Shown here piece by piece: positions 45,009 through 45,040 of a stretch of DNA of 64,000 nt. The translations under genes and the position numbers were made by a program. The notes under the pieces were generated by a model. The model ran no database searches. It saw nothing but the letters and a program-made list of their open reading frames with translations, and was not told the DNA's origin. How positions within the stretch are numbered: position 1 is the first letter of the stretch; each line of letters begins with the position of its first letter. Source of the stretch: Escherichia coli (GTDB lineage: Bacteria; Pseudomonadota; Gammaproteobacteria; Enterobacterales; Enterobacteriaceae). The stretch lies in assembly GCF_045037415.1 (NCBI RefSeq), contig NZ_CP173438.1; one strand, 5' to 3'.

Positions 45009-45040
45009 GCCCGGATGAGGCATTCACGCCGCATCCGGCA
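45009..45040. repeat. REP (repetitive extragenic palindrome) unit
   Basis: GCCCGGATGAGGCATTCACGCCGCATCCGGCA; reverse complement matches the canonical REP GCCGGATGCGGCGTGAA... Confidence 0.8.

Follow-up and report, generated by a model that had tools for sequence, protein, structure and literature searches.

Solitary and decayed REP units at gene ends in a 64-kb stretch of the Escherichia coli chromosome

The REP family (palindromic units, BIMEs) is the commonest short repeat in Escherichia coli. Its members are imperfect palindromes of 30–40 nt with a highly conserved 5′ GTAG and an A12A13/G26C27 bulge. The three types, y, z1, and z2, measure 35, 29, and 37 nt, respectively; the majority of units belong to pairs within BIMEs, and only 84 of the 584 REPs of K-12 are single (PMC3333891; PMC8266576). 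In K-12, about 99% of REPs are located at the 3′ ends of genes, between tandem or convergent genes (bioRxiv 10.64898/2026.03.23.713779). Isolates differ in whether they have a given BIME-1, an element made of a y REP, an L linker with an IHF site, and a z1 REP, and in how long their BIME-2s are; two-thirds of BIME DNA is found in strain-specific loops (PMC1187871). With any substitution in GTAG, the E. coli REP transposase, TnpA_Ec, neither binds nor cleaves (PMC8266576; PMC3333891). The Pseudomonas REPIN/RAYT system belongs to the same class, in which palindromes that are not autonomous are associated with a domesticated Y1 transposase, but its sequence family is different, and REPINs are inverted doublets, whereas the units described below are singlets, a form regarded in the REPIN/RAYT literature as an immobile remnant. 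With respect to function, the best comparison is REP325, a set of 12 units between yjdM and yjdN that stabilizes mRNA and also terminates transcription in a partly Rho-dependent way (Harris et al. 2026 preprint, bioRxiv 10.64898/2026.03.23.713779).

The window, by which we mean the whole 64,000-nt stretch of DNA analyzed here, is E. coli chromosome and runs from bamD through rrnG, kgtP, purL, glmY, and glrK to yphB, yphA, and hcaT. It is colinear, at ~97% identity, with the reverse complement of K-12 MG1655 at ~2.673–2.737 Mb, against which the gene names were checked, and all window segments compared with strain SK1144 (NZ_AP018784.2) are 100% identical to it. We searched the window with a 30-nt REP consensus, allowing up to three mismatches (background, 100 dinucleotide shuffles of the window), and by ungapped sliding match to y, z1, and z2 reference units (background, 20 shuffles, among which the best match was 66%). 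The y reference, which has GTAG, and the z2 reference are units at other loci in strain CUVET18-565, and the z1 reference is from K-12. Rfam returned no match at any REP site of the window, and the K-12 RefSeq record has no REPs annotated as repeat_region features.

These searches give four sites, and we think it highly probable (about 0.9) that they are members of the E. coli REP family, all of them old, immobilized copies at different stages of decay. Two are y-type units that match the reference at 30 of 35 positions, one after purL (45006–45040) and one between yphB and yphA (62713–62747). The other two are a z2-type unit after rrnG (10807–10843, 29/37) and a y remnant at 63312–63346 (27/35). 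The first two are foldable, and the rrnG site (on the + strand) and the remnant at 63312–63346 lack a strong fold. Like the y-type REPs described by Gilson, Bachellier, Hofnung, and others (Ton-Hoang 2012), the two foldable units are 35 nt long, agree at 30 of 35 positions over stem, loop, and AA-bulge sequence, and combine a high copy number with an extragenic position at a 3′ end and a strong hairpin; the y unit also matches the crystallized REP GTAGGACGGATAAGGCGTTTACGCCGCATCCG (PMC3479197). The purL unit lies in a tandem gene pair and the yphB–yphA unit in a convergent one, and the exception to extragenic placement is the rrnG-site remnant, which overlaps the end of yfiS. The two units depart from the described y type in that both are solitary and in that GTAG is mutated in one and absent from the other. 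Indeed, GTAG is found at none of the four sites, the corresponding tetranucleotides being GCAG (purL), AAAT (yphB–yphA), TGTG (rrnG site), and GTGA (63343–63346).

It could be argued that the purL and yphB–yphA hairpins are ordinary gene-end terminators that resemble REPs by chance or convergence, since GC-rich hairpins occur at gene ends and the window itself contains a look-alike, GTTGCCGGATGtgtcCATCCGGCAAC, between the convergent genes glnB and hmp. This hairpin (GTTGCCGGATG tgtc CATCCGGCAAC, 49603–49626) is a perfect 11-bp structure with a fold of −20 kcal/mol and REP-like ends (GCCGGATG...CATCCGGC), and it served as a negative control. Each of the 5425 genomes carries it once only and without variation, on which grounds we rejected it as a collapsed REP; it is probably a bidirectional terminator. 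The 32-nt core of the yphB–yphA unit, in contrast, is found at no fewer than 40 places in each of 5425 E. coli chromosomes, with a total of at least 217,012 chromosomal places versus 435 on the plasmids of those same assemblies. Further, the 35-nt consensus is matched at 30 positions in both units, loop and bulge included, and the 30-nt consensus search gave exactly two matches in the window, 45010–45039 (three mismatches) and 62717–62746 (one mismatch), with 0 expected from the 100 shuffles. Finally, a terminator scan of the purL-end and yphB–yphA regions found a U-run after neither hairpin; 3′ of the REPs, the + strand reads ATTAAGCA and ATCTTTCC and the − strand ATTTTATA. Copy number, together with the single-copy glnB–hmp control, thus indicates that both units are true members of the REP family and not generic terminators. 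The terminator explanation is scarcely credible for either unit, and we regard it as ruled out by copy number and consensus match.

The unit after purL (41098–44985, + strand, stop codon 44983–44985) starts 23 nt past the stop codon. On the + strand it reads GcAG-cCCGGATgAGGCaTTCACGCCGCATCCGGCA, a mutated GTAG followed by the hairpin CCCGGATGAGGCATTCACGCCGCATCCGGCA, and its RNA fold has an energy of −18.6 kcal/mol (z = −4.24). Its A12 is replaced by a G that pairs with C27, which leaves A13–G26 as the only mismatch and halves the bulge relative to described y units. The intrinsic terminator of purL, identified by the terminator scan, lies 21 nt downstream of the REP; it consists of an 8-bp GC-rich stem (45062–45083) and a T6 run extending to 45088, folds with −14 kcal/mol (z = −4.3), and is conserved in all aligned strains. 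Three TGTC-N10-GACA motifs follow at ~45089–45106, 45121–45138, and 45194–45211, the first adjoining the terminator, and a TGGCAC-N5-TTGCA-like sigma-54 element stands directly upstream of glmY (+1 ~45319; detected by Rfam from 45319). We take the motifs and the sigma-54 element (45089–45300) to be the GlrR sites and promoter of glmY.

Within E. coli, the purL REP locus is essentially biallelic. The REP is intact in 3147 of 5426 genomes (58%; at least 80% coverage of a 71-nt probe spanning the REP) and internally deleted in 2283 (42%; probe for the K-12 junction), among them K-12. The K-12 palindrome has lost 18 nt internally, made up of one copy of CGGCATT and the 11 nt between copies, a structure displayed by strains that carry GGATG-CGGCATT-CACGCCGCATC-CGGCATT. 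Judged by its sequence, this deletion is classic slippage across a hairpin between 7-nt direct repeats. Strain MN06021 has a different deletion, 19 nt in the left arm, so the purL palindrome has collapsed at least twice independently.

The origin of the purL unit can be read from outgroups, taken from one scan of species-representative genomes. In two divergent lineages labeled E. coli, L042 and L082, the sequence after purL comprises the decayed remains of a z1 unit, the L linker TGCAATATATTGAATT..GCA, and a y REP whose tetranucleotide is GTAG in L082 and GCAG in L042, and then the same terminator and glmY upstream region. This identifies the purL REP of the window as the y half that is left of an old BIME-1, still recognizable in divergent Escherichia, from which z1 unit and linker have here been lost. 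Only in divergent Escherichia was the whole BIME-1 allele encountered; at purL in the 5426 E. coli genomes it was not found, the matches there being paralogous BIME-1s at 76–83% identity. Among the loci from the species-representative scan, a REP at this position was not found in E. albertii, Salmonella, Klebsiella, or Enterobacter. Citrobacter, Pseudocitrobacter (a perfect BIME-1), Phytobacter, and Pluralibacter have BIMEs of their own in the purL–glmY spacer, which is a recurrent landing site where REPs or BIMEs have been acquired independently. The purL locus offers a tidy textbook series of BIME-1 decay, from the full element to a lone y unit to a stub collapsed by slippage between direct repeats.

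The second foldable unit occupies the 47-nt gap between the stop codons of yphB (61834–62706, + strand, stop 62704–62706) and yphA (− strand, ending at 62754, stop 62754–62756). On the + strand it reads aaAt-GCCGGATAAGGCGTTCACGCCaCATCCGGCA, with AAAT in place of GTAG; the 30 of 35 matches are counted with this tetranucleotide included. The bulge keeps A12, A13, and C27, and position 26 is A (G in K-12). The hairpin folds with −21.9 kcal/mol on the + strand (yphB sense) and −25.1 kcal/mol on the − strand (yphA sense), with z ~ −7, and its foot is 8–10 nt from the yphB stop and 4–6 nt from the yphA stop. The terminator scan found no T-run terminator in the gap. This single-REP allele, with its 47-nt spacer, is present in 4875 of 5426 genomes. 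In another 469 genomes, which all share at least 99% identity with one another, the spacer measures 159 nt and contains three units: a collapsed one (TGCCGGATGCACAGGCCTAC), an iREP of type z2, and a y REP whose GTAG is intact. The 112-nt difference between the two alleles is bounded by GCCGGAT direct repeats, and it accounts for AAAT in the short allele where GTAG would stand.

The third element is more degraded. The rRNA operon (16S, tRNA-Glu, 23S, and 5S; 5728–10745, Rfam) ends with the 5S gene (10630–10745), which is followed by a terminator hairpin (10759–10786) and then by the z2-type unit at 10807–10843, on the − strand (an iREP on the + strand). Like the z2-type REP of BIME-2, it has an intact z2 head and loop (GCCGGATGCGACGCTGGCGCGTCTTAT), but the outer arm is TATACTCCCAC instead of TATCAGGCCTAC, the complement of GTAG is mutated, and there is neither a y partner nor an S linker. 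On the + strand it folds no better than shuffled sequence (z = −0.67); on the − strand, z = −3.1. K-12 has the same ruined outer arm in its z2 unit after the rrnG terminator, and the unit is widespread in E. coli, which together indicate an old relic. Through its last 13 nt the unit shares sequence with the closing codons and stop of yfiS (10831–10893, − strand), a small ORF of 20 codons annotated as a protein in K-12 (b4783). This ORF is intact here, with three amino-acid differences from K-12 (MEVGNLGKTYSLLNLAYVGV versus MEVGKLGKPYPLLNLAYVGV), and it is the decayed arm of the unit that encodes these closing codons and the stop. The rrnG terminator hairpin also differs from that of K-12 (GGCCCAGTCGGAAGACTGGGCC versus GGCCATCCTGACGGATGGCC) between conserved flanks, a difference that may reflect gene conversion between rrn operons.

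A fourth element, at 63312–63380 on the − strand, is a decayed BIME-1 half composed of the y remnant (63312–63346) and L-linker-like sequence (63347–63380). In alignment, the element is 82% identical to the glyA–yphH BIME-1 of K-12, flank and linker included. The y remnant does not form a hairpin (fold z > 0). The element sits in the yphA–hcaT spacer, at the place where K-12 has a 5.3-kb hcaR-hcaEFCBD segment. That segment is absent from this strain, in which hcaT and csiE come straight after yphA, in agreement with the SK1144 annotation. The junction, 198 nt long (63260–63457), has no counterpart in the K-12 flanks; positions 63268–63285 resemble the 3′ end of K-12 hcaR.

At a 70% identity threshold, no z1 unit was found in the window, and there is no complete BIME-1. 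K-12 has two such elements, complete (y, L linker, z1) and near-identical, in the glyA–yphH and srmB–yfiE spacers, both without counterpart here. The empty sites in the window are at 52407–52469 and 22379–22410 (K-12 L002:16117–16216 and L003:11283–11382). At srmB–yfiE, the K-12 BIME-1 is flanked by two copies of a terminator hairpin (AATGyCGGGmTTAAACCCGGCATT), and this strain has one. Read from these sequences, the two copies suggest that a long duplication, of ~30 nt, accompanied insertion of the BIME-1. Presence in one strain and absence from another is known BIME-1 behavior, and the differences between the window and K-12 match the published polymorphism (PMC1187871).

These results refine the first-pass annotation of the window, which had described canonical REPs after purL and between yphB and yphA and a degenerate one after the rrn terminator. 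All three are real, with coordinates and gene context correct to within a few bases, and the consensus search that it proposed returned the first two where they had been placed, with none expected by chance. The word degenerate suits the unit after the rrn terminator, with its 29/37 match, ruined outer arm, and unremarkable + strand fold. The word canonical, however, is too strong for the other two. Both are REPs by their 30/35 matches (and, between yphB and yphA, by z ~ −7), but both are solitary, one is a BIME-1 remnant with GCAG and half a bulge, and the other has AAAT for GTAG. The inventory was also incomplete, as the decayed element at 63312–63380 had been missed.

Could these units be active today? 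The possibility that they are currently mobile, cut and copied by the REP-associated transposase, might seem attractive, in that they belong to a family processed in vitro by TnpA_REP and the purL and yphB–yphA loci both vary between strains. Several considerations make this highly improbable. First, neither intact unit has the GTAG on which binding and cleavage by the E. coli enzyme depend. Second, the purL unit is without A12 of the required bulge. Third, each unit is alone, without the inverted partner needed for cleavage in vitro. Finally, the strain variants can be explained by slippage, between CGGCATT repeats in one case and GCCGGAT repeats in the other, and a transposase is unnecessary. 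The purL and yphB–yphA units are thus most likely immobile fossils, a prediction made from the loss of GTAG (to GCAG and AAAT), and REP loci would decay through slippage involving short direct repeats, either within one palindrome or from one to another.

REPs protect upstream mRNA from 3′-to-5′ decay in some operons, with strong context dependence, and convergent gene pairs with REPs have higher expression, a correlation; the same preprint also states that terminal REPs do not lengthen mRNA half-lives genome-wide (bioRxiv 10.64898/2026.03.23.713779). When transcribed, the purL and yphB–yphA units would form stable 3′-UTR hairpins. By analogy with such cases, the most likely role of the intact units is that of a 3′-UTR hairpin that would serve as an exonuclease barrier and partial terminator. 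REP325 has the same 3′-UTR location, in a tandem gene pair, and its mode of action is the one to be expected of the purL and yphB units; it differs in having 12 units versus one per site here, and purL is already followed by a classical intrinsic terminator.

With the stop codon 23 nt behind it and a good intrinsic terminator 21 nt ahead, the purL REP lies within the purL 3′ UTR and is probably redundant. Its hairpin would be inside the transcript, ahead of the intrinsic terminator, and would be at most a redundant barrier to 3′-to-5′ exonucleases or a pause site. Moreover, the REP is collapsed in 42% of genomes without evident consequence and a proper terminator follows, which suggests that it is close to neutral there. 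In the 47-nt yphB–yphA gap, on the other hand, the REP is the only structured element and hence probably provides the 3′ hairpin of both convergent mRNAs, for which it would probably act as a 3′-end structure and a partial, Rho-assisted terminator.

This hairpin may also reduce the translation of both genes, because its foot is only 4–10 nt from the two stop codons. According to Liang 2015, as cited in PMC12306157, a REP less than 16 nt from a stop codon lowers translation via ribosome stalling. A stronger version of this idea is that the yphB–yphA palindrome is mainly a translational attenuator, such that ribosomes stall while melting the hairpin at the stop, the mRNA is cleaved, tmRNA rescue follows, and the levels of YphB and YphA are lowered. 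Both spacings (8–10 and 4–6 nt) do lie within the range reported there. But attenuation could not apply to the purL unit, at 23 nt, or to the rrnG unit, and in 469 genomes the additional 112 nt lie between yphB and the y REP, so that the yphB-side spacing is not universally kept. We therefore consider attenuation as the main function possible but doubtful, and we favor a 3′-end hairpin that is both exonuclease barrier and partial terminator.

An action at the DNA level, through binding of gyrase, DNA polymerase I, IHF, or HU and an organizing effect on supercoiling or the nucleoid, has also to be weighed. Such binding has been described for composite BIMEs, the IHF site being in the BIME-1 L linker (PMC3333891), and the decayed sequence at 63347–63380 is still L-linker-like. 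The purL and yphB–yphA sites, however, are single units with neither linker nor partner, the one linker-bearing element in the window is heavily mutated, and the 2026 preprint found neither nucleoid compaction nor REP–REP contacts attributable to REPs (bioRxiv 10.64898/2026.03.23.713779). A DNA-level role thus appears very unlikely, and the 3′-UTR hairpin remains our preferred explanation for the intact units.

Strain-specific REP states could, in principle, act as natural expression alleles, with intact and 18-nt or 19-nt collapsed forms at purL and one or three units at yphB–yphA. The purL REP alleles lie just upstream of the GlrR-activated glmY promoter region. Were this so, purL 3′-end stability, read-through into the glmY control region, or the output of YphB and YphA would differ between lineages; we regard it as improbable.

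REPs have also been invoked, in the first-pass annotation, as typical of E. coli intergenic DNA and as markers of native chromosome as opposed to acquired DNA. The former is correct, and the 32-mer is present at 40 or more places in every one of the 5425 chromosomes. The latter is true in a statistical sense, for chromosome versus plasmid or phage: the 32-mer is found in 172 of 72,556 plasmid records (0.24%) and in 49 of 50,697 phage records (0.1%). Many of these exceptions are chromosomes filed in error, contigs from whole-genome shotgun data, or host DNA picked up by transduction; the top-scoring plasmid records with the REP core are “plasmid” records of 0.8–4.9 Mb, and the phage records with the core consist for the most part of such shotgun contigs, of short contigs that lack annotation, and of a bio locus carried by transduction. 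But the REP loci are the most strain-variable parts of this region. Few parts of the chromosome are less stable than REP loci, so their presence is a poor guide to whether a given stretch is “native” DNA that has stayed unchanged. For native chromosome, core-gene synteny argues far more strongly than three palindromes do, and whatever two or three REP loci in 64 kb can show, that synteny shows better. More generally, REP and BIME elements, their y, z1, and z2 types, their 3′-UTR positions, their GTAG dependence, and their polymorphism among isolates have all been published already, and the details given here are descriptive, fit existing knowledge, and have little significance beyond annotation. 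Their practical value is that the palindromes of the window can now be labeled as two foldable GTAG-less singlets and two relics.

Some further structured elements of the window may be recorded. On the − strand, a hairpin between yfiF and ung (19333–19359; region 19321–19359) has a head resembling that of a REP, GCCGGATGGCAGAGTTGCCACCCGGC, and leads into a U-rich stretch; the hairpin is identical in K-12 and is probably the ung terminator. Rfam matches at gathering level comprise RyfD at 2592–2730 (+), StyR-44 at 7508–7616 (+) in the 16S–23S spacer, AsrC (antisense of rseC) at 28804–29635 (−), the rncO leader at 32418–32632 (+), and OhsC at 36044–36120 (−), all of which are expected for a region syntenic with K-12.
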